Virus record (IMG/VR): IMGVR_UViG_3300045988_047070
Source: a virus
Reading direction: 5' to 3' (one strand)
DNA: 64,000 nt
Shown here: in pieces, positions 3,286 to 48,700 of the stretch
How positions within the stretch are numbered: the stretch's first letter is position 1
Layout: every line of letters begins with the position of its first letter
Notes under the pieces: generated by a model
Seen by the model: the letters and a program-made list of their open reading frames with translations, nothing else
Told to the model about the DNA's origin: nothing
The model's database searches: none
Made by a program: the position numbers and the translations under genes

Positions 3286-3320
3286 ACAAAAACTCCCGAA
3301 CATCTGCATATGATGTTTTG

Positions 3321-3357
3321 GGTTAATTAACATTATTAACTTTTAAAAACATTCATC
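3321..3357 (+). promoter_or_regulatory. conserved leader, copy 1 (TTAACATTATTAACTTTTAAA core)
   Basis: GGTTAATTAACATTATTAACTTTTAAAAACATTCATC is nearly identical to 6711-6748. Both lie directly upstream of small membrane-protein ORFs. Confidence 0.45.
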
Positions 3358-4393: not shown

Positions 4394-4472
4394 ATTCTGT
4401 GTAGTTTAAGTGTCTAACACATGGTAGAATCCCCTGCTAAGGGCGAATGCAGGTTCGAATCCTGCCACAGAA
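4394..4472 (+). tRNA. tRNA-like gene, anticodon unresolved (a CTGCTAA loop would read GCU/Ser)
   Basis: The acceptor TTCTGTG/CACAGAA forms 7 bp, and the T arm is GCAGG-TTCGAAT-CCTGC. A D-like arm GTTTAAGTGTCTAAC is present. The central 30 nt contain CCC-CTGCTAA-GGG but do not fold canonically by hand. Confidence 0.55.
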
Positions 4473-4754
4473 ACATTAAAAATTCATTGATGGTTTTATA
4501 GAGAGTTTAAGATTCTCCATTTTAATTTAACACAGCTACTATATACCTATTGTGAAATACGTATATAGTTTCCCTAGAGTAAAAGCAACCTCATCGTAGC
4601 TAACAACAATACTTCATGCGCGTTTGGTTAATATACAAAGTTAGCGGGTTCTAGGGTCTAGTAGGTTTAAATTGTCAGACTGAACGAATGTCATGACTAC
4701 CGAAGCTAATAGCTTTTAAAAACAGTAAATATTAACAATAAAAATATCAAATTT

Positions 4755-6450: not shown

Positions 6451-6710
6451 TTGAATGTGTACTTTTCAAAGAACAACTACCTAAATACCGCTGTGAAGCT
6501 CTATTTAGTAAAAGACCTATGAAAAGTGAGTTGTCAATCCAGCGTATACTAAGTAGTAGGTCTTTTTAAAAGACTATTCTTAATTATAAGTATATGGAAA
6601 ACTACGGTTATTATTCTAAAGAAATTAATGAAGACTGTTTTGTAGTATACTATTTTAGTAGACAAGCCAGATCTGTCATTTATCAAACAAGCTCTTTATT
6701 AGGAGCCTTG

Positions 6711-6748
6711 AGTTAACTAACATTATTAACTTTTAAACATTCAATCAA
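6711..6748 (+). promoter_or_regulatory. conserved leader, copy 2
   Basis: AGTTAACTAACATTATTAACTTTTAAACATTCAATCAA matches 3321-3357. Confidence 0.45.
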
Positions 6749-7249: not shown

Positions 7250-7700
7250 AATTCTTTTTGGTTCAGGAGTATACTTTTTATATGCATTGCCTGTGAAGGT
7301 AGTGCATATTTTTACTATTAGATCATCAGAAAATGACAAGCATGTGGGGCGTAAGTAGTATTTTTATGCAGGAGAAGAAGAATGGCAATTGTTCTAATTA
7401 GTACTGATAATTGCAAATACTATGATCGTGCGGACGTTAAAATCATGCCGTTAATAAGAATTGTACTGGCAATACAATTCTGCTACAACGTAAAATATGT
7501 TATATAGCCGATTATAAGAAGTTTTATGTAAGAGTTTTTTAATATTTATTTTGCAAGCATAAAACTTTACGATGACACTTGTTATTAGTTGCTCATAGTA
7601 CAATATGAGTTGTTGTTAATCAACAATCGTTCAATCAAAACCCTCTCCGTAGTTGTACATACGGAGACGTCATCAAATTGTTTAACTAAAAATTATCAAA

Positions 7701-8248: not shown

Positions 8249-8504
8249 TTACCGCCAGTTACTAGTCCTCAAGTCTATAATTCTTAAATTGTTAAGATAT
8301 GGTGGTCATTCCCCTAAAGCATGTTAAACCTAACGCCCTAAGCCCATAAACGGTATGTGAAGATGCATACTACGGGATTGTGTACTTGTACAAATGATAA
8401 TCTCACAGGAGGTTATTAATTATAAGAAGGAGAAGAGGTTCCCTCTGAATAAGAAATAGGAATAAGAGGGCATGCTTATTATTTGAAACTAACACAATTG
8501 GGAT

Positions 8505-9263: not shown

Positions 9264-9603
9264 TCAGCAATTCCGCTCTGAAGAGCTATAAGCCGAAAAG
9301 AGTAGTGGGATATGAATATAGTAGTATTTCACAACGCAAGAGATATACTTGCATTGCTTAAGATCCTTTGAGACAAAAGCAGGAAGGCGAAATTAGCATC
9401 AAGACTAAAGAGTACGAGATCCATTGAGACAGCTAGTCCTACGTACTCATATTCATTATTTTTCAGGTTTAATTAGTAGAGAGCTATAAGCCAATAATAG
9501 TTTAGTACAGTAGTAATGCCGATCATATAAGTCTCATCGTAGCGTTGGAGTCCATTTCAGTATTAAATGATTTATTACTACTAAAGGAACCAAAAATTAG
9601 GGT

Positions 9604-9635
9604 GTAAGGAGAGAGATCTCCTTACATTCACTAAA
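9604..9635 (+). other. hairpin plus ACATTCACTAAA box, copy 1
   Basis: GTAAGGAG-AGAGAT-CTCCTTAC forms 8 bp. The 12-mer ACATTCACTAAA at 9624-9635 is identical to 12492-12503. Confidence 0.45.
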
Positions 9636-9847
9636 TATTCACGATATAAGAACTGTGTCGTGTCTTATTAGGTTTATTGGAAACTATTAGGACGAGGGTT
9701 CGATTAAGATGGTCGAGTTTAAATTGGGTGAATTCAGGGAACGCTAAACAAAAATGCTCAGAAATGACATTTTTGCATGCCAATCCTGAGCTAAGCATGT
9801 AGTACACTACATGAAAGTGCAGAGACTACTGGAGAACTAAAGTGTTC

Positions 9848-10372
9848 TTAATTACCAGCTAGAGCGCCCAACCCTTCATTAGAAGGTGAAGAGATAGTCC
9901 AAGATTCACGAAACTTTTTAAGTTTCTCCTCAGAAATGAGGTTCCTATGAACCATTCTGTGGCAATTAGGACATAAAGTTATTAAGTTTGTAATTTCATT
10001 TTTACCACCGTTAGATACAGGTATAATATGATGAACATCACAAGAAGCTTTATTCCAACCGCATATTGCACAAGGTTGTAATAATAGAAAATTGTAAAAT
10101 GATCTAGTAATAGCATTATTAGATTTCATTCTTTTACGATAATCTTTTAATTTACAAGCATTCGTACAATACTTTGCTTTGGAAGATTGCGCTTCAAATT
10201 CCTGTTCACATACAATACATTTACATTTGTATTTCTTTCTATGTAAATTTCTGTATTTAGCAGCACATGAAAGTGAACAAAATTTTGCATTTCCTCTGTT
10301 TACCTCTCGTAAATCAGCTTGGAATTCATTATTACAACATAAACATTCTTTTTTCATACAACCATAACGCAT
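9848..10372 (-). CDS. HNH homing endonuclease, free-standing, antisense to the surrounding genes
   Basis: The HNH core is CDVHHIIPVSNGGKNEITNLITLCPNCHRMVH. The N-terminal part carries multiple CxxC pairs. Confidence 0.85.
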   Translation of the reverse strand: MRYGCMKKECLCCNNEFQADLREVNRGNAKFCSLSCAAKYRNLHRKKYKCKCIVCEQEFEAQSSKAKYCTNACKLKDYRKRMKSNNAITRSFYNFLLLQPCAICGWNKASCDVHHIIPVSNGGKNEITNLITLCPNCHRMVHRNLISEEKLKKFRESWTISSPSNEGLGALAGN

Positions 10373-10645
10373 ATGGAGATAGAATGTTCTAATAACTTAA
10401 AAGAATCTGTCCCTCCAGCTCCACGCTCATAAGAGCTACAAGGGCAAAACAAAACTAGGGTTTTTGATCGTGTTAACCGTGCGCCAAGTTTTTAAATTTT
10501 AGAACGGTTAAAAGGGGCTGCATGGTTTTGACTAGTAGTGAAAGGTAAAATAGGTTCATTGTGTGTTTAAATGGCAATAATTTTGTCACAGACTATACTC
10601 AACTAGCAGTTGCGTAAAGTCACGTGCTAACTACGAAAGTGAGGG

Positions 10646-10711
10646 ATATCTATAGTTTAACGGTAGAACACTGATTATTCAGTAGTGTAGGTTCGAATCC
10701 TACTAGATAAC
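10646..10711 (+). tRNA. tRNA-like element with truncated anticodon arm (66 nt)
   Basis: My fold is ATATCTA-TA-GTTT-AACGGTA-GAAC-ACTGA-TTAT-TCAGT-AGT-GTAGG-TTCGAAT-CCTAC-TAGATAA-C. The acceptor has 6 bp plus an A1/A72 mismatch. The D loop has GG. The middle arm is only 14 nt with a 4-nt loop. Confidence 0.55.
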
Positions 10712-11446: not shown

Positions 11447-11618
11447 AAGTCCCCAAGAGAGGAAAGAGTTCTTAGCATTGCTAAGAGATGCACAAGATGT
11501 TACAGAGATAGCAACAATCATTGCTAAAACTTACAAAAAAGATCTAATAGAGGCAATGGATATTGCTCGAGTGTATAACGAATTTATTAGGAAGGAAAAT
11601 GAAAACGTTGACAACTAG
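11355..11618 (+). CDS. hypothetical protein (start uncertain, possibly 11418)
   Basis: ORF track. It overlaps 11000..11446 by 92 nt if the first ATG is used. Confidence 0.45.
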   Translation: MKCLGMAVYGRKWKYLINQKRMRVGKRIYFESPQERKEFLALLRDAQDVTEIATIIAKTYKKDLIEAMDIARVYNEFIRKENENVDN

Positions 11619-12024
11619 TGGAACTTATTTAGTAACAATCAGTGGACAAGAGTACATAGCAGTAGTAATAGGAAGCGCACCTATGCTACAGGTTGCAAGA
11701 GTGTTAAACTTAACAAAGTTCATTGATACTGGAGAGTTAGAAATCAGTACAGAAGCAAGAACTGTATTAACTGAGAAACCGTGCGAATTTAACTTCAGAC
11801 AGATCGACTTGAACATCATCAGTCCGATGCAGGAAGTAGTACAGATACCGAAGTTACCCTACACACCTAAACAGTACAAAAAATGGTTATCATTATGTGG
11901 TGATTTAGATCGTGAAAAGTTACTTACAGATATCATGCTAACAAACCCTAGCATCAGTTACGGTGAAGCTCAAACAATCATTGATCAGTTATGGAGAGAC
12001 AAAAGGAACATAGTCTCACAGTAA
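11599..12024 (+). CDS. hypothetical protein
   Basis: ORF track (11563..12024). I prefer the ATG at 11599 (MKTLTTSG...), which is preceded by AGGAAGGAAA. Confidence 0.6.
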   Translation: MKTLTTSGTYLVTISGQEYIAVVIGSAPMLQVARVLNLTKFIDTGELEISTEARTVLTEKPCEFNFRQIDLNIISPMQEVVQIPKLPYTPKQYKKWLSLCGDLDREKLLTDIMLTNPSISYGEAQTIIDQLWRDKRNIVSQ

Positions 12025-12467
12025 ATTATACAGATCTGTGTGATTATCTAAACGACCGTCTAGTCTTACCCTATCTACCTAAAGTAGGAGAAGACTGGAA
12101 TTTATTTGGTCCAGTCATATCACAGACATATGGACCAGACGGAGTATTCCCTAAGCAATATAATGATAAAGAATTACTAAAATGGATACAACACAGAATC
12201 CAAGTAAGGACATTATTATTATTTGTACAAAGGAAACTCTTTACACACCTTGCCATGTTACACAATACAAGGGCAACGGATGCAGTTCAGATGCGTATTT
12301 TCGTATCTATGCTGAACAAGTTAGGACTACCTAGAATTTATGCTGATGAAATATTTGATAATGTACATCTGCAGTATGACATTAGGAAACCTGTTTTCGA
12401 AGATTATTATCTTATGAAAATATTAGGTTTACCTTTTTGTTTTGAATCTAGGCCTTGTCCTTTTTAA
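11991..12467 (+). CDS. hypothetical protein (158 aa)
   Basis: ORF track. It has a 34-nt overlap with the upstream gene. Confidence 0.6.
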   Translation: MERQKEHSLTVNYTDLCDYLNDRLVLPYLPKVGEDWNLFGPVISQTYGPDGVFPKQYNDKELLKWIQHRIQVRTLLLFVQRKLFTHLAMLHNTRATDAVQMRIFVSMLNKLGLPRIYADEIFDNVHLQYDIRKPVFEDYYLMKILGLPFCFESRPCPF

Positions 12468-12470
12468 GGT

Positions 12471-12503
12471 GTTAGGGGTTCGACTCCCCTAACATTCACT
12501 AAA
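12471..12503 (+). other. T-arm-like hairpin plus ACATTCACTAAA box, copy 2
   Basis: GTTAGGGG-TTCGACT-CCCCTAAC has a TTCGAnT-type loop. It is followed by ACATTCACTAAA at 12492-12503. TGAATCT (12443-12449) could pair with ACATTCA as a mini acceptor stem. Confidence 0.45.
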
Positions 12504-12518
12504 CAAGTTAGTTTGATT

Positions 12519-13082
12519 ATGAAGAGAGAAGATGAAGACCTTCTTATTCAGCAAGCTAAGCTTGGTAAGCAAGATGCTTTTACAGAGCTTTATGATCGGC
12601 ATCATAAGCTTATTCGATACATTATCTATGATATTGTAAAGAATGAAGATGTAGCAGATGACTTATTATCTGTTACCTTCACAAAAGCATTTAGTAGATT
12701 AGAATCTTATGTAAACCCTATTTCATTTGAAATGTGGTTAAAAACTATAGCAATTAACACTGCAATAGATTATATAAGATCTTCTAAGAATGAGAAACAG
12801 AATCATTATATAGATTCTGAGGACAATTACATTCAGTTAGATAGTAACGATCTCAGTCCTGAGGAAGTTATTATGAAACAGGAAACTGTTGAACAACTGA
12901 AAGTAGCTCTACATAAATTAAGATCTAAATATCGTAACATATTAGAATTACGATATTTCAAAGGCTTAAGTTATGAAGAACTTGCAACTGAGCTTGGCGT
13001 GCCAATAGGAACTGTAAAAAGTGACTTAAACAAAGCTAAGAAGAGATTGCGAGAATTCTTTGACAACATTAACAATAACTAA
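12519..13082 (+). CDS. ECF-type sigma-70 family RNA polymerase sigma factor
   Basis: The region 2-like stretch is QDAFTELYDRHHKLIRYIIYDIV...DDLLSVTFTKAF...WLKTIAINTAIDYIR. The region 4 HTH is ILELRYFKGLSYEELATELGVPIGTVKSDLNKAKKRL. The ATG at 12519 lies within the TTG-started track ORF. Confidence 0.85.
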   Translation: MKREDEDLLIQQAKLGKQDAFTELYDRHHKLIRYIIYDIVKNEDVADDLLSVTFTKAFSRLESYVNPISFEMWLKTIAINTAIDYIRSSKNEKQNHYIDSEDNYIQLDSNDLSPEEVIMKQETVEQLKVALHKLRSKYRNILELRYFKGLSYEELATELGVPIGTVKSDLNKAKKRLREFFDNINNN

Positions 13083-13098
13083 CAAATACTTACACATC

Positions 13099-13482
13099 AT
13101 GACAGAAGTTGCAATCATCGCAATTATAGTCATCTTAGCTGCAATCGTTATAGGGAAGGCCAACCATAGTAACGATTTAGTTTGGAGACTATTGTTCTGT
13201 TTTAGTGTTAGCGTATGTGTGTCTATAGGTTTCCTTTACATCTTTAGCAGCAAGCCAAAAGCAAAAGCAGCTAATGTTGAGGTAATTCGTAAGGCAGGAG
13301 ATTCTACTGACGCCCATGTAGTATGCTTCAACCAGATAGCAATGGCTGAAGTTACCGAACAGGATATTACAGGTCAGGAGTCATTATTATCAGAATGCCT
13401 TACATGGGCACCAGTGATGAACGTGTTACCATTGAATAGTTTAAACTATATAATGGAACACATTATCTTTGATGACTCATAG
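13099..13482 (+). CDS. two-TM membrane protein immediately downstream of the sigma gene (candidate anti-sigma or partner, speculative)
   Basis: It is in the frame of track ORF 13060..13482 with an ATG at 13099. Hydrophobic segments are VAIIAIIVILAAIVI and LLFCFSVSVCVSIGFLYIF. The partner role is suggested by position only. Confidence 0.5.
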   Translation: MTEVAIIAIIVILAAIVIGKANHSNDLVWRLLFCFSVSVCVSIGFLYIFSSKPKAKAANVEVIRKAGDSTDAHVVCFNQIAMAEVTEQDITGQESLLSECLTWAPVMNVLPLNSLNYIMEHIIFDDS

Positions 13483-13579
13483 ATAGCGATAACACTAACA
13501 AAAACAGACAAACGAGAGAATTAGGTACGTTCGTACCAAGTAATTAACATTTAAACACAATCTTTAAAACATTATCAAA

Positions 13580-15046
13580 ATGGCAAAGAATAAAGCAAAG
13601 AAAGGAGCTACTGCTCCGAAAGTAGAGACAAAGGCAGCTGAGGAAGTAAAAGTACAAGCTGCTGTAGAAACTAAAGTAGAGGATAAGGCACCGAAGAAGC
13701 CTGCACCTCAACCTGATGTACAGCCGAAAGCTGACACAAAGGAACAAAAGAAACCTGATCCGACACCTGCTGCTGCACCTGCAGAAGGAGCAACAGGCGA
13801 TCAACCAGCTGTAGTTCAACCAGAAGAGGTTAATAACGCAGCTATGCCTACGCAAGCAGAGATGTCGGCCGAGGTATTCAAAAATGCAGAATTACAGTCT
13901 ATTCTCGGTAGTATTTCTCTTACTCCGGAAAGTACTATGGACGCTAACCACATGGTGTTGTTAACTCACGTAGCTACTGAACGGTTCAAAGGGAAAGATC
14001 CGAAGAATCCTGTAGTAATAGCAGCTAACGAGATGGTTGATGACCTTACTTGTTACTGTATTGCTGTAGCTGGTATTAACATGGCAATTAACGGCAAGAA
14101 ACTAGGTATGTCCGTACCTGTTAACGCCTTAGGAGCTTATGTACGAGCTATGGGATACTTTGGCATTGCATTACCGGCAGAGAAGGCTGTTCCGGATCCT
14201 AACAAGCCTGATCAGCTCCTAATTCCGTTTGAAGGAGCATCTCCTGAGACTGTTGAGACAGTTAAAGAAGAGATCAAGATGCAAAGAGGCACTAAGCCTA
14301 CCATGGATCCAGCTTTGTGGAAGAGCGATGAGGACGCTAAGAAAGCGCTTCTCTATATCCTGAGTGACACATTGTCTAAGGATAATCGTTTCTTAGTATC
14401 TACCTCTAAGTTACGTATGTACAAGATGCTGTCTGCAGAGAACAAGGAAGAGAAGGCTATGTGGGAATCAGCATCCAATGCAACCATATTTGACAATCTT
14501 TTGTCAATTCTTGGTACAGCTAAGTCTACGTTCTTGAATGCAATTGGAGGACAAATTTATTCGTCCGCCGCTACACAGAAGAATCCGATTAAGAGTCATT
14601 TAACTCTTAAGCGTAACTTCCCGCAGTTATCTGACGAAGATGCAGCTGAGATCATTAAGATCATAGTAAAGCACAAAGCAGCACAGAATAATCCTAATGA
14701 GCCGCTAGAGAATAACATCGCTTGGAACGGCTTGAAAGACGGTAAACGTGAAGACTGCTTACTGTATCCTACTAAGACAACGGATGTAGACAAGGAGATT
14801 ATGGGACGTCTCCAGAATGTCTATGCAGAACGTTTAGGTAGTCCAGCAGAAGCTGGTTATAACCTCCGTGCCACTAACTTAATTGTTACTATCATGAACT
14901 TGTATAAGACTTCTGGACAAATTGCGCAACTTGTCGAGCAGAATTATACGGCTGAGGTAAACAAGGCATTAGAGGCAACGTCTGGTAAAACTGCTCCGCA
15001 AGAGGAGAAAAAAGACGAGAAGGAGGCAGAGAAACCGAAAAAATAA
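13580..15046 (+). CDS. 488-aa protein with K/A/P/E-rich low-complexity termini, function unknown
   Basis: ORF track. The first roughly 85 aa are KKGATAPKVETKAAEEVKVQ...KKPAPQPDVQPKADTKEQKKPDPTPAAAP. The C-terminus is QEEKKDEKEAEKPKK. Confidence 0.7.
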   Translation: MAKNKAKKGATAPKVETKAAEEVKVQAAVETKVEDKAPKKPAPQPDVQPKADTKEQKKPDPTPAAAPAEGATGDQPAVVQPEEVNNAAMPTQAEMSAEVFKNAELQSILGSISLTPESTMDANHMVLLTHVATERFKGKDPKNPVVIAANEMVDDLTCYCIAVAGINMAINGKKLGMSVPVNALGAYVRAMGYFGIALPAEKAVPDPNKPDQLLIPFEGASPETVETVKEEIKMQRGTKPTMDPALWKSDEDAKKALLYILSDTLSKDNRFLVSTSKLRMYKMLSAENKEEKAMWESASNATIFDNLLSILGTAKSTFLNAIGGQIYSSAATQKNPIKSHLTLKRNFPQLSDEDAAEIIKIIVKHKAAQNNPNEPLENNIAWNGLKDGKREDCLLYPTKTTDVDKEIMGRLQNVYAERLGSPAEAGYNLRATNLIVTIMNLYKTSGQIAQLVEQNYTAEVNKALEATSGKTAPQEEKKDEKEAEKPKK

Positions 15047-15052
15047 TCAATC

Positions 15053-15442
15053 ATGAATCGGTTAACTGATTTCCTTTGGTGTGCATTATTTTCGTTTATA
15101 GCGATTATAACTGTCATCAAATTGAGCCCAAATGAGGCTAAAGCAGAGCAAAAAATGCCCGAGCTTACAATTCCAAAATTCAATCCTGTAGGTCAGTTTG
15201 ACCTACAGATTGATTTAAACAAGGGAACCGCAAACGTCACAAGCAGTAACGGAATAGGTAAAGCCAACGTAACAGTAAATCATCCTACGGAGGTAATTGA
15301 GGTTCCAAGTAAACCAATTATTAAAAAGGAGGTAAAGTATGAAACAAAAACTGAATATTTGGAGAAAGTAGTACTATTTTCTTTACCAGTACCTACATTT
15401 CACGTACCAAGTGTTCAGATTCCTAAAAGCGTAGAGAGATGA
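15053..15442 (+). CDS. signal-anchor or secreted hypothetical protein
   Basis: ORF track. The N-terminal hydrophobic segment is FLWCALFSFIAIITVI. Confidence 0.6.
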   Translation: MNRLTDFLWCALFSFIAIITVIKLSPNEAKAEQKMPELTIPKFNPVGQFDLQIDLNKGTANVTSSNGIGKANVTVNHPTEVIEVPSKPIIKKEVKYETKTEYLEKVVLFSLPVPTFHVPSVQIPKSVER

Positions 15443-15534
15443 AAGCAAAAAATAGTACATTGGATAAATTAGCATTTGTAGGCTTAATTATCTTCTTTAT
15501 AATGTGTTTATTCTTTGCATGGTGTATAACATAA
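15439..15534 (+). CDS. 31-aa membrane micro-protein, ATGA-coupled
   Basis: Hand translation gives MKAKNSTLDKLAFVGLIIFFIMCLFFAWCIT. The ATG overlaps the TGA of 15053..15442. Confidence 0.35.
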   Translation: MKAKNSTLDKLAFVGLIIFFIMCLFFAWCIT

Positions 15535-39746: not shown

Positions 39747-42700
39747 TTACTTTATACAATGATTCATTTCATCTGTAGGAAATTCATTCTCATTATTGAA
39801 TTCATTAGTCTGTTCAGTCTGTTCAGTCTGTTCATTTTCAGAAGTAGAAGGTTGTTCAATAGTGTTTTCTACCACTTCACCATTTTCATCCATACTAGTA
39901 TCTACTAATGGAGCTGAATCATTTTCAACAGTACTAAACATATAATCAATTGTATTTCTTGAATAAAATACTCCACTTAATGGTTTACCACTTACCTTAT
40001 TAGTTTGTGAATTAATTTTTGGTACAATCTCATTGTTAATAATATCTGGAATATCTTCTAAGAAGTTATTATCATATTTAGCAAATCTTGGAGCAACATT
40101 ATTACCCGGAATAATAGAGAATCTAGATATATATTTACTTCCAGTAGTATATGGAGATAAGTATTCAGATACAAACCCTTTACCACCTTGTCTAAATCCT
40201 TTCTTATTCACTAATATATATAATGGTTTATATGTTTTAGTTTTACCATTATCTTTAATAAATGTACCAACATATTTATATAGATTATATCCACCAGTAG
40301 CATTGTTATCTCTCATTTTAACATATGGATGGTACAATGGAACATCAGTATCATCTTTACAAACATATCTTCTAGAAGATCCTTTAATAGCTACAGGAAC
40401 TAATCTATTACCAACTTTTTCTCTATGAATATAGATACCTTTAGTATTTGTATTTATTACAGGAACCATGTTATTATCTTGCCAGTTATTACGATAGATT
40501 TCATCTACATCATCTGGAGTGAACAGATTAGAGAAATCATCTATATTTTTCTCTAAAGTTCTTACAGTTTCATAATAACCAAGTTCATCTAATACCCTAG
40601 TAGGTATAAAATCAAATAGAGAATTCAAGTGTTTAGTACCATGACCACTAAATACTGCATATCGAACTAAATCATAAGCTAAATCATGTAATTCTTGATT
40701 ATCACTATCTAATAATTCTTGCCAGTATTCTCTAATCTGTCTACTAGCATTAGAACTAATATCATCTGAATAATCTAAACGAACATAATCTATAGCTTTA
40801 CCTGTGGTATCAGTTACACCAGTAATACTATTAAGGAATAGATTACTAATTCTACCATTAGTGACGGAAATGATTGGATATTTACCACCTTTGGAAGCAG
40901 CATCAGAGATAATATCAGTTTTAATCCTATTAATTCTCTTAGCAATGGTATTAGGACCAATGAATAGGTCTCTCAGCTCTTTCATACTATTAATTAATGG
41001 ACTACTAGTACTATCATACAATGCATAAGCTCTCCAGTAAGAATCAATAGCATTAGTAAATGCTGTTACAGCTTGTTTATCTTTTACTTTGGAAAATCCA
41101 CTAGCATTAATAAGAGATCTAAATACCCTATAGTACTCATCAGAAGATTGTATATTAATTTTACCAAGTAAATCCAATGTGAACTTGATACTATTATCTA
41201 TCTTCTTTTGTAAGAATGTTTCCTTAAAGAATTTATTAATCATTTCTGATGTGAAATATGGACTAGTATAACAATCAGCAACATTCTGTAAGAAAGTTCT
41301 CATTTCAATAGAGTTCTTACCAAACTTCTTAGTATCTACTTGAGAAGCCTTTACAAGATCAGACATTGCCTGAGCCATAGGTTCTATTTCTTTGAATAAC
41401 TTATATACAAGTATTTGTCCATAGTAATAATCAAAATCTTTTTCTTTATCATTTGCTTTACGAAGAAGATTTTCTAAATAACCTAACTTTCCTTGTTCAG
41501 GAACCTCAAACAATACTTGATCTGTAACTTGTTCATTCTTAAGCAAGAGATCAAGATTTTCTTTATCCTCATTGGATTTAGCTAAACTCTTTGCTTTAGT
41601 AACAAATTTATCATATACTGCTTTTTCCTTCTCTTGGAATCTTCTATAGAATGGTTTAGTGTTATCTATGCCATAAACTCCCCTACTCTGTATATAATCA
41701 TTTGCAAGATCTTTCATGATCTCTTGTGAAACAAAATACATAGTATTCTTGCCAGCACCATTTCTTAATAAAAAGTTAGTAAGATTATAGGTAAATCCAT
41801 TTACATTTAGTTTGATGATATAGTTATCCTTAGCAACGTCAACGTGAGCACTAATCAATGCAGATAACCAGTCTAGAATATGAATATCATCTACACCACT
41901 TACTTTATGCAAGTTACCTATATTCGGTAAGTACTCTGGAGATTGCATTACTAATTCAACTAACTGACCTAATACATGATGCGGGTTATTTAATGCAAAT
42001 GGCCCAATACCACCTTTACTATCAGCAAAGTCTTGTTTTAAAGTATCTTGATATTCTTCTGTATACTCATATAAAGCAGCATCATTCTTTTTATCAGGGA
42101 AATACTTCTTTACAATACCGTTTTTCATGATGTTAACAGGAACATCCAATGGTCTAGTAGTATCGTGAGTATTCTTAGAATCAAGTAATGAAGCCATAAA
42201 TGTATCAATCAATAGGTTTTCTATAGCACCCTGAGATTGTTCATTCATTGACTTATTATAATCAAATTCTGTCTTAGAAGATATATAAGGATAAACTTTA
42301 TAGGTTGCGTCTGTAACATCATACACAACATTAGAATTCTTACTTTTAAGATAATCATTAACTAATGTTGCCATATTCTGCGTTGATCTTCTTGTAACAG
42401 GCTCACCGTCTTTAATAGCTAAGATTTCATCAGCATATTCATTAAATCCACTTAATGCTAATTCTTTTTCATCTTTAGTTGCTTCTCTTCCGGGTTTATT
42501 ACTTCTACGAGAAGTATAATTATATCTTGTTAAGAATAACTTATCAATATCAAAGTCAGAACCAGTTCTTGCAGTAAACTCATCTGGTAATATAATTATA
42601 TCTCCAGCTTGAGACATTACTACATCTTTAATAGTTAAAGCAGCGATAGAAGACATACCCTGAGTAGGTACACGATATGCCATTGCAGATGGTGAAGCAT

Positions 42701-45700
42701 TTGGACCAATTATATTGTTATCCATTAACCACTGCCTAGCTTGTAAGAATGACATATTTTCATATCCGGGGATTATGTGTTTCAATAGATTTATTGAAAT
42801 AACACACTCCATAGATCTATCATCTGCAATTAGTTTAAGTCTTTCACCATTATTGATTTGGTACTTAGAATATTGACCAGCTTCACTAGCTTTTACTTTA
42901 TCAATGGATTTTAAACCAAAGGAAGACATCTGTACGAATGTACCACCTGGTAGATTAATATCTACAGTTTCTTTGTTTACTGCGGATATAATCTTTGTGA
43001 CTAATTGCTTAGCTACAGGAGAAGCAGACAATGGAACTTTAAAATTACCAGTTTCATCAAGAGTAACTTGATCAATAATATCAGAATCCATATTAGATGA
43101 AATCATATCCCTTACTAATTTATCAGATATACCTTGCAGGTCTTTAAAAGAATATGTACCATCTTCATTCTTTTCAGCATGCAAATCCTTAAGAATTCTA
43201 TTGAGTCCTCTATCTGATAAATTATCAATAGCGTCCATTGCTAATTTAACTAGCTGTCTACCACTAACTTTCTTACCTTTTCTACCTGTAGTATCTTGGT
43301 CTACACCGCTACTAGAAGGAATAAAATAGTCTCCATCCAATCTAATATTTGAGAATACTGTCTTCATAGCCTGAGTAACCAACATACGCTTTTCAGCATC
43401 GTGGGCTTCAATAGGCATCTGATTAAGTAAGTTACCAAAATTCTGTTGTCTATATACAATAGGTTTAGAATAGGTTCCTTTATCATCCTTTTTGAATTCT
43501 TCTGTTATTTCATTTTGAGTAGCATCTGTATAGAAATCATACTCTTTGATATTACCTACTTTTACTGCGGATTTTGTAGTAAACATATCAATAGGATTAT
43601 TAACATCATTCATCCTATCATACAATACTCTTAAATCTCCAGTAGCTAGTACTTTAAATAACGGGAATATAGCCATCTTATTAAAGATAGGCATATTAAT
43701 GAATTCACCGGGTATTGGTTGTAGTATTTCATTACCAAAGTATACCATCTTTTTAGGAGATAATACAGCAGATAATGTATTTACATATTTTCTGATATCA
43801 CCTAAATCATCAGCATGCTGCTCTACATAATCAATAGCTTCTTCTACTTTAGGATCTAATAAACCTTGACTAGCTAAGATAGCTTTATACATAGTAGGTG
43901 AACAGTATACAGATGCATCGGCTTGGTTAATTGGAGTTTCTTCTTCATTAACCTCAATATTACCTTCTTTATTCATCTTAATATCACCATACAATGATAA
44001 GTCACGCTCTGTACTCTCTTTAGCTTTATCTTTGATACCTTGTGGTATACTCTCATTACTGAATAGATCACCAGATTCAAATACAGTATCAATGTATTCT
44101 TTGGTATATTTACCAGAGTTTTCCATTAATTCCCTTACATATGCATCATAGATTGCTTTGTATAACTCTTTTGGTTGATTAGTACGCAACTCAACATCTT
44201 TTAATCCAGCCACATTATATCTACCTTGTTTATACCTAGCAACTTTATTCATTAAATGGTTAGGATCAGAGAAGTCTGTTCTAGGTCTATCACCAGTTGA
44301 TAATGTACCAGCAAGACGTTTAGATACATCAGGATAATTCTTAAAGAATGCTACATCTTTATACAGGATTTTTTCTGTTTCAAACATTGACACAAAGTTA
44401 TTAACAGTAAATGTAGAAATAGCATCATAAATAGCTATATGGTTCCTATTTAGTTCATTTTCCTTTCCTGCTAATGTAGCAATATCATTAGATAATTTAT
44501 TAGCTCTGTCATTAATGGAACTTACAGGTAAGAATTTATTCTTATAATACCCATCAGTTGTTTTCTCAATTAGACCTAATCTTTGTATATAATCTAATTG
44601 TTTATCAACAAATACTCCTAATGTAGTATTTAGATCTTCTTTCAATTGAGCAGTATTATTAAAATAATCCATTAATTCTTTATCACTCATTGAATTAAAA
44701 GATATGTATTGTACATTACCATCTCCAGTATAATGATATACACCACGAGCAATTCTAAACTTACCTCCTTTACCGTTATCCTCACCTCTTTTACCAAAGT
44801 ACATGGTAGGTCTGTTGGAATCATCAATCTTATCTTCTGCTAATTTCATTCTACGATACTGTAGAATTGCATCATATTCACTTCTGTAGTATTTATAGAA
44901 TTGGTTTAATACATCATCAGAAAATCTCATTTCAACATAATCGTCAACAGGAGTAATGTTTAAAGTACGACCTTTAAACATTTTTAATCCTTGAATTGGC
45001 ATATATGTCTTTTTATCAGACATCGTAGGTAAGATAAGAATATCATTTTCAGAACATACAAATTTAGAAATAAATGTTTCTATTCTAGGAGCCGATTGAT
45101 AATCTGTACCAGTATTACCAGAATTATATTCTGTAATATTAAGTAAAGTACCTACAGTAAGCCTAGTATTAGGACTATTCTTTAATGTATTATAAACTAG
45201 TGAAGAAGAGTTAATAGGACATTTTAATAATCTACTAACATAATTTCTATCATTATTAAGCTTCTTAATTTCCAAAGTAAGATAATTATGCTTAGATAAC
45301 GGGTACACTGTAGTATTCTTAGGTCCTAATACTTTCTCCTCTAGATTATTGTTATTAAGCTGATAATGAACAATAGCTAAGTTTAATATACTGTTTTCCC
45401 CAGTAAACACACCATCAATAGATCTTTTAATCCTATCATTAGGTTTGTCTTTAACAGGCCTACGCAAAATTTCAGGAATTGCTTTAGCTAAACTACCATC
45501 TCTATTACTAGATAATAACTCTTTAGCTGCTTGTAGTATTGTAGGCTTATTAACTGAATTGACTGACGATACCTTATCTACAATGGCTTGATACAAAGTA
45601 TCAAAATTAATTGCAATACCAATCTTATTATATATATCTACATAGCTATATAAGACTGCATTGAAATCTTCATTGCTAGTAGATTCATTCATTCTAGCTA

Positions 45701-48700
45701 ACCTAGTATTTAATGTGTTGATATCATCTCTAATAGTCTTTAGTAACTCCATGTTAGGCTTACGATTACCTTCTGCATCAGTAATTACCATATTACTATT
45801 ATAGAAGTTTCTATTCCAATCTGCAACTAGTCTTTTACCATTACGTAGATTAACACTACCACCTAAGTTGGCTATGTATTGAATAGTATCTGTTCCAATA
45901 TTTTGGAATCCTACTGTAAGGAAGTTATGCCTATAACCAGTAATAGTTTGAAATATTTGAGTTTGAAGATTAGAATCCTTTACTGAGGATAACTTATTAT
46001 ACACTGAAGCATAGAATGGATCGGTTTTTGCTAATTGAGCAGATTTCCTGATTAATCCATCATAAGTATCTTCATCAAATAATTTATCTACAATTCTTCT
46101 CCAAGCTGTAAGGAATGGTGTTACTCTAGGTATACCAGTTTCAGCATTCATATCTCTTACATAACTATCTGTAGCTTTATCGTATACACGATCTTCAATA
46201 GAAGATAAGAAAAGTTTTACAGCAGGTCTAATATTATGTAATACAGATACTTCGTAGGAAGCTTTATCATATTTATCAAAGTTTTCCTTTTCAATTTCAC
46301 CACCATCTCTTTCCTCAGTTTCATCATATTCCTGTTCTTCTTTTACTTGTCTTAAGCTTAAAGAATCAAGATAGGACTTAATATCTTTTTGGAATACATC
46401 AAAGTGCTCATATAATTCATTAGCAGCTGCTCTTTGCTCTGGTGTAGCATTATCATCATATGATAAATCCTCAAGTAGATCACGCATATCTTGGTAATCA
46501 ATCTGTATTTTAGTAAGATCATCTACAAAAGATTGAGAACTTAATGATTGATTAATATAAGATATTGCAAAGAATTCTACAGCCTGATTATAGTTATCAA
46601 GAGATTTTATGTTTTGGAAAGTGTACCCATGTTGAGTAAAGTTTACCCTATTTCTATAAGCTTTCTCAAATCTATCTTTAGCTTCTTGGCTTACTGGGAT
46701 ATTAGCATACTTACCTTCATATATGCCTCTAAAGATTTTAGTAGGAGTAGTTCTACCAAATAAAGACATAATGAAGTCTCGTAGTTTTTCAAACCACTTA
46801 GTAATCCTATAAGACTTTCTTGGAGTCTTATACATCATATACCCTCTAAATTCTTCTGCTAACGCTTCTTCTACATATTTATCAGATGCATTCTTAAGAT
46901 TAGGATGAATTCTACGATACTCTTCATATACTTTGTTTCTTTCTTGATCTGATAGTAATAATAGAGATACTCTATGGTATGCTTCGTGAAATTCTACACC
47001 AGATGGATCACTATTATATAACGTAATACTATCTTTAGTCATATAAGATAAAGCTGTTGCGGGCATATCAGAAGATACAGCTGCATCAATTATATTAATC
47101 TCTGCATCTGTCATACCTAACTTTTGTTTCAAGAAGTTTTTAGCTTGCACCTTATTCAGTTTCTCCTTAGTAGTATATTTCTTATTAGGAGTGAAGTTTA
47201 TTTTAACTTCTTTTTGGCTACCACCCATACTAGATAAATCGCTAAATGATCTACGTCTTCTAGATGGTTTAGGCGCTTCAGATTTAGGAGCTTCTTCTAT
47301 TGCTGGAGTTGCTGTAGAATCAGGTATAGTTGTAGGCATATCCTGAGTCATACCATCTGCAATTACATATGGTCTTTCATATCTTCCTGCATTAAGATTA
47401 GATTTAATCATACCATTTCTTACCATCCAAGACAATAATGTATGATTCATATCTTCTCTAGTAAATACTATACCATCAAATAATTCCAATCTACCACCTG
47501 CCTTTTCAACACTACTGGCTAATCTACCAGAAAATAATAGATTCATTTTCATGTTAACTGCTAACTTATCATTCCCTTTTGAAGGAACCTTAAAAGGCAT
47601 AGAACCATTAGACAATAACCAATCTTCAAAGTGCTTTCTCTCTTGCTCTTTTTGTGCAATAGATAAACCAGCTAATGATACTTCATTAATACCATAGTGT
47701 AATACACCAAATTGCCCTTTATTATCTATATACAATTGTTTATTACGCAAATTAGCTTTTGCAGAATCACTAATGTCAGAGTCATTATTTACAGAAGTAG
47801 GTTCACCATAGTTTAAGAACATTTCAATAATATCAGATGCAATTAAATCTGTATTATTTATATTCTGTCCACCCTTAAATCCGCTTCTAAACACTATAGT
47901 AGAGATTGCCTCTGCTAATTTAGGATAAGAGTTGAATCTTGCTAAAGATAATTTTAATGGTAATGGTCTACCGGATAATCTTTTTTTACCATCAATAATA
48001 TAATACACACCACCAGAAGTAGTACCAATAAAACCAGTATTATCACCTTCTACGGTAAATATAGTACTTGTACCTCTAACACCAGTACTATATCCAAAGT
48101 TATTGATCTCTTCATCTAGATTACCACTAAACTGAAATACATCTTTAAATTGTTTATCATTTACTGGTATCTCTTGAGAAATAGTACCTTCAATAGCATT
48201 ATGCAGTAACAATCTAGTAGGAGTTACCTTTATTCTAGTATCTACCTTATTTAGTAAAGACCCATTTGAATCTTTCATTACAAACCTAGAGATAATTTCT
48301 TGTCTACGTTCCCGTAGTTTTCTTATCATCTCAGGATATTCTTCTGGAGTAAGATTACGAATATTATTCGGGCTTCGCATTGCAACCCAATACCTTTTAT
48401 TATTTTCAGTATTAGTAATTATTAATCCTACTCTGGCATAATCATAGGTATTAGGATCATTCCATTGTACTGTCTTCTTACGAATATTATCATAGTAAGG
48501 TGCTACAGAATATTCATAAGTAAGTTTATCTTGTTTAGTTTTAAACAGCTTAGGTAATTCAGAGTTAGGAGAGAATTGAATTCTAGCACCGCCTAATTCT
48601 ATAGTTTCACCAATATTAGCAGTAGGAGTATAATGGAAAGTATTTAAAATACCTAACTCACTATTCTCTGTGAATTCAGCTAATTCTGAATCACTAATAG

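Follow-up and report, generated by a model that had tools for sequence, protein, structure and literature searches.

The 64,000-nucleotide viral stretch IMGVR_UViG_3300045988_047070 (the window) comes from a crAss-like phage and encodes an RNA polymerase sigma factor of 187 amino acids, followed directly by the gene of a small membrane protein. Judged by its sequence, the 187-aa product is a bona fide, intact phage sigma factor of the extracytoplasmic function (ECF) type that consists of sigma2 and sigma4 alone. Going by its distribution, the gene is a signature of the Suoliviridae, and its product probably directs the host core RNA polymerase (RNAP) to phage promoters. The two genes are as follows.

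12519..13082, + strand: ECF-type (group 4) sigma-70 family sigma factor, 187 aa (Pfam, NCBIfam, PHROG, SigW match, substitution pattern)
13099..13482, + strand: conserved small membrane protein, 127 aa, candidate sigma partner (adjacency to sigma, AlphaFold2 model, conservation)

Identity and architecture of the sigma factor

The open reading frame (ORF) at 12519-13082 starts with ATG; a TTG two codons upstream would give a product of 189 aa. Searches with Pfam models placed Sigma70_r2 at residues 24-90 (49.9 bits, cut-off 24, E = 2.7e-13) and Sigma70_r4_2 at residues 126-177 (57.2 bits, cut-off 25.7, E = 1.3e-15), both far above threshold. Sigma70_ECF (34.6 bits, cut-off 21.1) and Sigma70_r4 (46.2 bits) also exceeded their curated cut-offs, while the models for region 1 and region 3 gave no match at E ≤ 0.1. 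The spacer between regions 2 and 4 comprises approximately 35 residues, which corresponds to the short sigma2-sigma4 linker of ECF factors. The NCBIfam model TIGR02937 (sigma70-ECF) matched with 116.8 bits (cut-off 42.9, E = 7e-34), and phrog_1740, 'RNA polymerase sigma factor', with an E-value of 2.5e-29. The ECF architecture that the first-pass annotation had read from the 187-aa ORF is thus borne out by these models. The ORF stayed below every cut-off of the NCBIfam equivalog and subfamily models SigY, SigW and Sig70_bacteroi1, and therefore no named ECF group can be assigned. Its closest solved relative is Bacillus subtilis SigW (5wuq; E = 5e-21, residues 10-179 aligned).

An alignment of 11 sequences from five Suoliviridae subfamilies was used to identify invariant columns, which are D48, F54, K56, S69-F70, W73-L74, I83-D84, R87, K167 and L170. 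They coincide with the hallmark positions of ECF factors in regions 2.1-2.4 and 4.2. Relative to the uncultured phage cr10_1, the sigma gene of the window differs in 12 codons, and all 12 differences are synonymous with no non-synonymous exchange. By this substitution pattern the gene is under purifying selection. Because of the model matches, the invariant hallmark positions and the exclusively synonymous differences, the identification as a sigma factor is correct far beyond chance.

The conserved residues also bear on the idea that the protein is a decoy or competitor, which would tie up the host core RNAP or one of the host's anti-sigma factors and shut off the host without specific initiation. 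Host shut-off through sigma competition is conceivable, and a target motif is not proven. Nevertheless, residues typical of the DNA-recognising regions 2.3/2.4 and of the helix-turn-helix of 4.2 (W73, L74, D84, R87, K167, L170) have been kept, although a decoy would not need them, and we regard this explanation as very improbable.

The sigma gene itself is already known. GenBank and RefSeq label it 'RNA polymerase sigma(-W) factor', and since both annotate it, the gene is not a discovery. A literature search found no published analysis of the crAss-like sigma factor or of its small neighbour; the sigma factor is mentioned at the level of annotation, and a mouse-virome paper names an RNAP sigma factor as one of the functions of the Zeta group. 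New here are the presence of sigma in all Suoliviridae matched, its coupling to the small protein in 92 of 92 loci and the lack of the host -7 box from the upstream regions.

Distribution of the sigma gene

The region 11500-15500 of the window is 98.5% identical to cr10_1 (NC_055875.1 / MT774382.1), which is classified as Crassvirales, Suoliviridae, Boorivirinae, Canhaevirus hiberniae. On the opposite arm of the genome, together with the structural genes, lies a giant ORF for the virion RNAP.

39747..52547, - strand: ORF of 4266 aa with a virion RNA polymerase homologue (match to phi14:2 g066)

The match comprises 999 aa encoded from 39747-42746 (-) in the C-terminal part of the ORF and aligns with phi14:2 g066, 'Catalytic RNA polymerase subunit', at 26% identity (E = 8e-21). 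The earlier view of the window as DNA of a crAss-like phage with a virion RNAP was therefore right on both counts.

By tblastn, sigma was detected in 22 of the 22 Suoliviridae reference genomes matched (cr1, 4, 6, 7, 10, 50, 52, 53, 55, 56, 60, 109, 113, 114, 115, 118, 124, 125, 130, 131, 272 and 273) and additionally in a Bohxovirus; no match was obtained in any Crassvirales family other than Suoliviridae. The Steigviridae crAss001 and phi14:2 have no annotated sigma factor. In IMG/VR, 464 stretches encode a relative. Many of the top 120 database homologues are located on contigs of approximately 100 kb and none in a bacterial genome context. A pattern-based scan of GTDB revealed no close bacterial homologue; its matches were almost all crAss-like contigs of ~100 kb that had been binned into unrelated metagenome-assembled genomes (MAGs), apart from one weak Bernardetiaceae homologue with an uninformative neighbour. 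It is because of the 22 of 22 genomes, the lack of a match in other families and the crAss-like nature of the GTDB matches that we regard sigma as a signature gene of the Suoliviridae.

The near-complete crAss-like genomes found in GTDB (82-102 kb) sit in MAGs labelled Lachnospiraceae, Bacilli, Gastranaerophilaceae, Sphaerochaeta, Mollicutes and Segatella copri. They look like binning artefacts; the Segatella cases may hint at a host.

Promoter elements upstream of Suoliviridae genes

The Bacteroidota -7 box was searched with the regular expression TAnnTTTG within 60 nt of gene starts. The sigma-less phages were represented by two Steigviridae, phi14:2 and crAss001. The box was present in 7 of 38 upstream regions of phi14:2 and in 8 of 26 of crAss001, where about 1-1.6 are expected by chance, but in none of 52 in cr10_1 and none of 88 across 12 Suoliviridae loci. 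In phi14:2 the expression recovered sites before g070, g075, g108, g110, g092 and g093. Middle promoters of the host RNAP have been mapped experimentally upstream of the first four of these genes, and a published motif search placed the motif at g092 and g093 (preprint 10.1101/2020.03.07.982082).

Instead of the host box, upstream regions of Suoliviridae carry T[TA]ATTAAY and CATTATCAAA elements. T[TA]ATTAA[CT] was found in 21 of the 88 regions, with most copies 11-32 nt from the ATG, and TATCAAA, as part of (CAT)TATCAAA, in 31 of the 88, mostly 0-3 nt from the ATG. Each of the two is enriched roughly 6-9-fold. In the window, the following sites were identified.

13541..13579, + strand: upstream element TAATTAAC (13541-13548) ... 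CATTATCAAA (13570-13579), abutting the ATG of the next gene (kept in nearly all 12 loci)
3333, 6079, 6723, 7682, 8808, 13541, 17869, 19214 and 28671, + strand: copies of T[TA]ATTAAY / TTAACTAA (motif scan)

The copies in the window are 11-31 nt away from the start codons that follow them, often stand right behind a terminator hairpin and T-run and are frequently paired with (CAT)TATCAAA abutting the ATG; two of the sites, 3318-3349 and 6708-6739, contain an extended repeat, TTAAYTAACATTATTAACTTTTAAA. Copies of TTATTAAC in cr10_1 are found in both arms, and eight of the nine that are strictly intergenic are in sense orientation. The element at 13541-13579 is a candidate for a phage-specific promoter plus leader, and the pattern of motifs fits a family that would not rely on the host primary sigma factor.

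Taken together, redirection of host RNAP by sigma, as proposed in the first-pass annotation, is plausible and indirectly supported because of the intact sigma architecture, the purifying selection, the family-wide presence of the gene and the lack of host -7 boxes in Suoliviridae. A shared -35/-10 motif of ECF type was not recovered. ECF sigma factors recognise bipartite promoters with a -35 'AAC' and a -10 'CGT', often in front of their own operon. When the whole cr10_1 genome was searched for GGAAC...CGTC and for GAAC/AAC N15-18 CGT, matches were scattered and none was located upstream of sigma. Exact bipartite pairs of 5-mers yielded none that was convincing, and a scan for sigma70-type promoters gave 77 matches for 77.1 expected, hence no enrichment. 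Sigma may have a specificity other than the ECF consensus. Two candidates were dropped in the course of these searches. Pairs of AAAGA-N-GAGAC seemed non-random, but they are spread over coding sequence, and a reading of T[TA]ATTAAY as the -35 element would place that element too close to start codons.

Besides the missing bipartite motif, further points weigh against redirection of host RNAP to these elements. T[TA]ATTAAY lies very near start codons and is mildly enriched in the sigma-less phi14:2 and crAss001 as well, so that it may represent an AT-rich leader of a generic kind or a signal for the virion RNAP. It also precedes genes located before sigma. The link between T[TA]ATTAAY and sigma is thus one that we infer, because of the start-codon proximity, the occurrence before genes on both sides of sigma and the enrichment in sigma-less phages. 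For the host box, cr124_1 gave 5 of 113 upstream regions with 5.2 expected, which is no enrichment; the promoter counts of this genome are noisy because its ORFs are fragmented. Moreover, no cultured Suoliviridae isolate was among the phage-collection matches. As to cr124_1, calling ORFs with the standard code breaks the genome into many short ORFs, hence the 113 'upstream regions'. This fragmentation is consistent with the stop-codon reassignment reported for late genes of delta-group phages (PMC7886860).

It is accordingly quite possible, though we would not expect it, that T[TA]ATTAAY and CATTATCAAA are virion-RNAP promoters, translation or leader signals or the sites of another regulator, and that the true sigma promoters are few and escaped detection. 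The distances of 11-32 nt and 0-3 nt from the ATG and the variable spacing between the two elements are unlike a -35/-10 pair, and ECF sigma factors with an intact sigma4 normally require a -35 element. Such an origin of the elements is harder to reconcile with the fact that TTATTAAC is strongly conserved at orthologous sites in different subfamilies and with its sense-strand bias. Furthermore, phiEco32 gp36 provides a precedent for a phage sigma factor using essentially one AT-rich element of the -10 region, AATGTA at -11.5 (PMC12276001), and early virion-RNAP transcripts of phi14:2 have no shared motif (preprint 10.1101/2020.03.07.982082).

A phage genome in which no canonical ECF motif is found would also be expected if sigma acted mainly on the host genome, switching a host ECF regulon (envelope, capsule, stress) for infection or persistence. 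The membrane partner recalls ECF modules that respond to envelope signals, and phage-encoded sigma factors that reprogramme host development have been documented (PMC9429907). On the other hand, the GTDB scan brought up no close bacterial homologue, the nearest matches being on crAss-like contigs of ~100 kb, and the lack of host-sigma promoter boxes in Suoliviridae calls for another way of recruiting a polymerase. In addition, sigma is universal and syntenic and lies near replication genes in a strictly virulent-looking lineage. A main action on host genes is therefore unlikely in our view.

A different repeat, ATGCAYCAAG...ATTTnCCT...ATTGTGA, is present in three to four copies of ~36 nt each on the + strand (918-927, 946-955, 1501-1510 and 2388-2397). 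All copies belong to the first 1.5 kb of the arm, and two are just behind terminator-like hairpins. The repeat is a candidate early promoter, perhaps for the virion RNAP, or a candidate regulatory site.

Coupling of sigma to a small membrane protein

The small ORF at 13099-13482 begins 16 nt past the sigma stop codon. A corresponding ORF was present in all 12 Suoliviridae reference loci, which span the Boori-, Louti-, Beari-, Uncou- and Oafivirinae (116-142 aa, at -4 to +17 nt from the sigma stop), and in 80 of 80 IMG/VR loci (122-129 aa, at -4 to +16 nt; 51 distinct proteins). Sigma and the small-protein family are thus coupled in 92 of 92 loci, some of them with 4-nt ATGA overlaps. The gaps of -4 to +17 nt suggest translational coupling, and co-expression of the two proteins is probably obligatory. 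Annotation of the small ORF in RefSeq is uneven: it is absent in cr10_1 and cr4_1, truncated in cr118_1 and labelled 'ATP synthase-like protein' in cr50_1. From the conserved arrangement we conclude that the small ORF is a real gene and that it is closely tied to sigma.

Database entries of the family form 96 clusters, most of them from crAss-like contigs that reach ~100 kb, and among these clusters it was seen beside sigma alone. A Pfam domain covering the small protein was found in none of the 96 (one 94-aa entry carries Sigma70_r4_2 alone). Its members consist of an N-terminal hydrophobic helix, a short basic loop with the pattern [AG]R..K[SD].K, a second helix containing glycine and a poorly conserved acidic tail, whose end D[DS]S (DDS/DSS) is almost invariant. 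In the 127-aa protein of the window, hydrophobic uncharged runs extend over residues ~4-19 and 31-51. AlphaFold2, run with 29 sequences, predicted helices at 2-22 and 25-50 with a predicted local distance difference test (pLDDT) score of 70-80, followed by a disordered tail of ~75 aa at ~40; the loop joining the helices is basic and mostly 4-11 aa long. The two hydrophobic segments noted at first sight are therefore supported by composition as well as by the model. As the model consists of two helices and a disordered tail, nothing was left for a fold search.

No family was found for the 127-aa protein in Pfam, PHROG or NCBIfam, and a profile search of the PDB with the small-protein family detected no relative. 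The small ORF shares with anti-sigma factors the location next to a sigma gene. Its first hydrophobic helix starts at residue 2 and leaves no room for an N-terminal anti-sigma domain (ASD or its zinc-binding form, ZAS), as had been suspected in the first-pass annotation, and two hydrophobic helices with a predicted disordered tail differ from the layout of a single transmembrane (TM) pass with an extracytoplasmic sensor.

Three observations count against a role of the small protein as a partner of sigma. Anti-sigma families of Pfam and NCBIfam gave no match at E ≤ 0.1 or 0.01, the tail is predicted to be disordered, and charges in the family point away from the cytoplasm. Across 40 members there are no K/R at the N-terminus, +2.85 K/R in the loop on average and a net charge of approximately -6.5 in the tail; the positive-inside rule applied to these values favours a topology with the loop inside and the tail outside. 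In the window's own lineage, the tail starts K-rich with five K/R (+5), which is compatible with a cytoplasmic tail, so that the charges do not clearly decide on which side it lies. The anti-sigma reading suggested earlier for the neighbour of sigma did not gain from these analyses. Only the position next to sigma argues for it, and we consider an anti-sigma-like function doubtful.

Whether the small two-helix protein is instead an unrelated early or middle membrane protein that shares an operon with sigma, and no sigma regulator, appears evenly balanced to us. Examples would be a superinfection exclusion protein like the two-TM protein Imm of T4, or an envelope or lysis-timing factor. The lack of an anti-sigma domain and of any relative in Pfam, PHROG, NCBIfam or PDB, a model with a helical hairpin and a disordered tail alone, and a charge pattern that would put the tail out of reach of sigma all agree with an unrelated protein. 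So does the continuation of the operon with two further conserved proteins, one of them membrane-anchored. Against this stand the adjacency to sigma, which is the same throughout the five subfamilies and the 92 loci and always has a gap between -4 and +17 nt, the finding of the family beside sigma alone and the K-rich start of the tail (+5) in the window's lineage. There are also precedents in SigY-YxlCDE, with its small membrane proteins, and in FlgM, a disordered anti-sigma factor.

Hairpin in front of sigma

A conserved hairpin precedes the sigma gene.

12468..12502, + strand: hairpin with an 11-bp stem (12468-12478 / 12486-12496) and the loop TTCGACT, then CACTAA (folding, conservation)

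The hairpin (12468-12496) stands directly behind the stop codon of the preceding ORF, and CACTAA is followed by 16 nt up to the sigma ATG. For 12468-12502, the minimum free energy is -16.2 kcal/mol (z = -3.6), and the loop is T-loop-like. A hairpin of 10-13 bp was detected at the same place in 10 of the 12 reference loci (z -2.5 to -5.6). Stem sequences differ among them, eight have ACTAA behind the hairpin, and a small number of loop classes can be distinguished (TTCGACT, ATTGGGTT, TTTGATCG, GAGA). The 80 IMG/VR loci yielded 17 distinct best-folding upstream segments, 15 of them with a strong hairpin, and ACTAA in at least 63 loci. This leader hairpin could be a terminator or attenuator without a U-tract, a site of RNA processing or stability, or a structured promoter.

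A second hairpin with ACTAA was found at 9600-9634 (+). It has a 13-bp stem and a GAGA loop (z = -5.0) and is located directly upstream of a group I intron match.

Genes and RNAs around the sigma operon

Sigma sits on the + strand arm, ~11 kb past the divergence point. It is preceded by a run of small ORFs and non-coding RNAs, and replication genes follow directly after the sigma operon region. The order sigma, small protein, ~480-aa protein and ~130-aa anchored protein is kept in 12 of 12 loci. In the window the latter two are:

13580..15046, + strand: syntenic 488-aa protein with a K/A/E-rich disordered N-terminus and a helical C-terminal domain (next gene, 12/12 loci)
15053..15442, + strand: syntenic 129-aa protein, hydrophobic anchor or signal at its N-terminus (follows the ~480-aa gene)

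For the 488-aa protein, AlphaFold2 gave a pLDDT of 80-95 in the C-terminal domain; with Foldseek, PDB yielded nothing informative, and the matches in BFVD were all orthologues from crAss-like phages. An ORF of 122-139 aa with a hydrophobic N-terminus is present downstream of the ~480-aa gene in all 12 loci. Neither the 488-aa nor the 129-aa protein has a family in Pfam, PHROG or NCBIfam.

Several structured RNAs were recorded on the + strand. A Hatchet ribozyme (7322-7448, 102.7 bits), a RAGATH-9 RNA (8302-8480, 94.8 bits) and a group I intron (9637-9920, 65 bits) were found in Rfam searches, each at gathering score, and all three lie in a largely non-coding stretch upstream of the sigma operon. 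RefSeq places a 'tmRNA (SsrA)' at ~10048-10433 (+), likewise at the equivalent site in many Suoliviridae. On the window, ARAGORN and the search of Rfam at gathering score both failed to reproduce this call, and the region is probably some other structured RNA. Rfam also detected three tRNA-like genes (+) at 4395-4473, 10646-10711 and 21161-21228. ARAGORN called the last one alone, with an abnormal anticodon loop ('tRNA-???'). Suppressor tRNAs and recoding have been reported for delta-group crAss phages (PMC7886860).

A model for transcription in Suoliviridae

Sigma of the Suoliviridae (delta-group crAss-like phages) would bind the RNAP core of Bacteroidales hosts and bring it to phage promoters, a role that the host primary sigma factor performs in sigma-less crAss-like phages. 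The sigma operon would be expressed first by the injected virion RNAP or by read-through from the early region, and the holoenzyme of sigma and host core would then transcribe most of the later genes. Promoters of these genes are possibly the AT-rich T[TA]ATTAAY elements 11-32 nt before the start codons, mainly single-element as for phiEco32 gp36. As a co-expressed membrane partner, the small downstream protein might regulate or localise sigma, which we put forward tentatively; any such regulation would not use a canonical anti-sigma domain.

A more far-reaching programme with three specificities can be envisaged, and it is rather improbable that all of its parts hold jointly. In this programme the virion RNAP would recognise structured elements, with candidate start sites at the covarying hairpin plus CACTAA and at the ATGCAYCAAG...ATTGTGA repeats early in the arm, and would express the sigma operon. 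Sigma would take the host core RNAP to single-element T[TA]ATTAAY promoters. The small protein would represent a new class of anti-sigma factor, in which a helical-hairpin anchor and a disordered acidic tail ending in DDS-COOH would tether or time sigma.

The switch from early to later transcription in crAss-like phages has been studied so far in sigma-less members alone. A family-wide sigma factor and the lack of host-type boxes suggest that the Suoliviridae have solved this switch differently. Sigma, its conserved partner and the candidate promoters form a concrete system for heterologous studies in Bacteroides and could supply an orthogonal sigma/promoter pair for engineering this genus; the gene is also a simple marker for Suoliviridae. 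The value is limited, since phages are well known to bring sigma factors of their own, databases already annotate this one, and the function assigned to it is derived from sequence.

Comparison with known systems

Bacillus subtilis SigW (5wuq) is, like the phage protein, a sigma2 plus sigma4 protein of ~190 aa, and the two align end to end. As in SigW-RsiW and other bacterial ECF pairs, the gene of a membrane protein is located immediately behind the sigma gene. Anti-sigma factors of the RsiW type combine a cytoplasmic N-terminal domain of ~80 aa, which often binds zinc, with a single TM helix and a domain outside the cytoplasm; the canonical anti-sigma domain is a helical bundle of ~80 aa, often with HxxxCxxC. 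Unlike RsiW, the small phage protein starts with a helical hairpin, has no anti-sigma domain and ends in a disordered acidic tail.

Negative regulators of sigma factors without a canonical anti-sigma domain exist as well. The small membrane proteins YxlCDE of B. subtilis are encoded directly behind sigY, and FlgM is an intrinsically disordered anti-sigma factor that folds upon binding. No sequence similarity to the small phage protein was detected for either system.

Among phages, T4 gp55 and SPO1 gp28 and gp33-34 belong to the sigma family and set the timing of middle and late transcription by the host core RNAP. T4 gp55 has no sigma4 and requires gp33 and the sliding clamp. To our knowledge, in none of these phages with sigma cascades is the sigma factor joined by a virion RNAP that is injected or by a membrane protein dedicated to it.

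In the lytic phage phiEco32, the divergent sigma factor gp36 replaces the host primary sigma on the host core RNAP, and a second phage protein, gp79, modulates gp36 (PMC12276001), which resembles the arrangement considered here for Suoliviridae. The differences are that phiEco32 has no virion RNAP and has its early genes made by host sigma70, and that gp79 is a soluble RNAP-binding factor, whereas the Suoliviridae partner is a membrane protein. Moreover, gp36 is a distant sigma homologue (PMC12276001), while the Suoliviridae protein is a textbook ECF factor by hidden Markov models. The Steigviridae phi14:2 and crAss001 share the genome plan and the giant virion RNAP with the Suoliviridae. Whereas these two phages have no sigma factor and use TAnnTTTG at middle and late promoters, the Suoliviridae lack such boxes and carry a sigma factor of their own.

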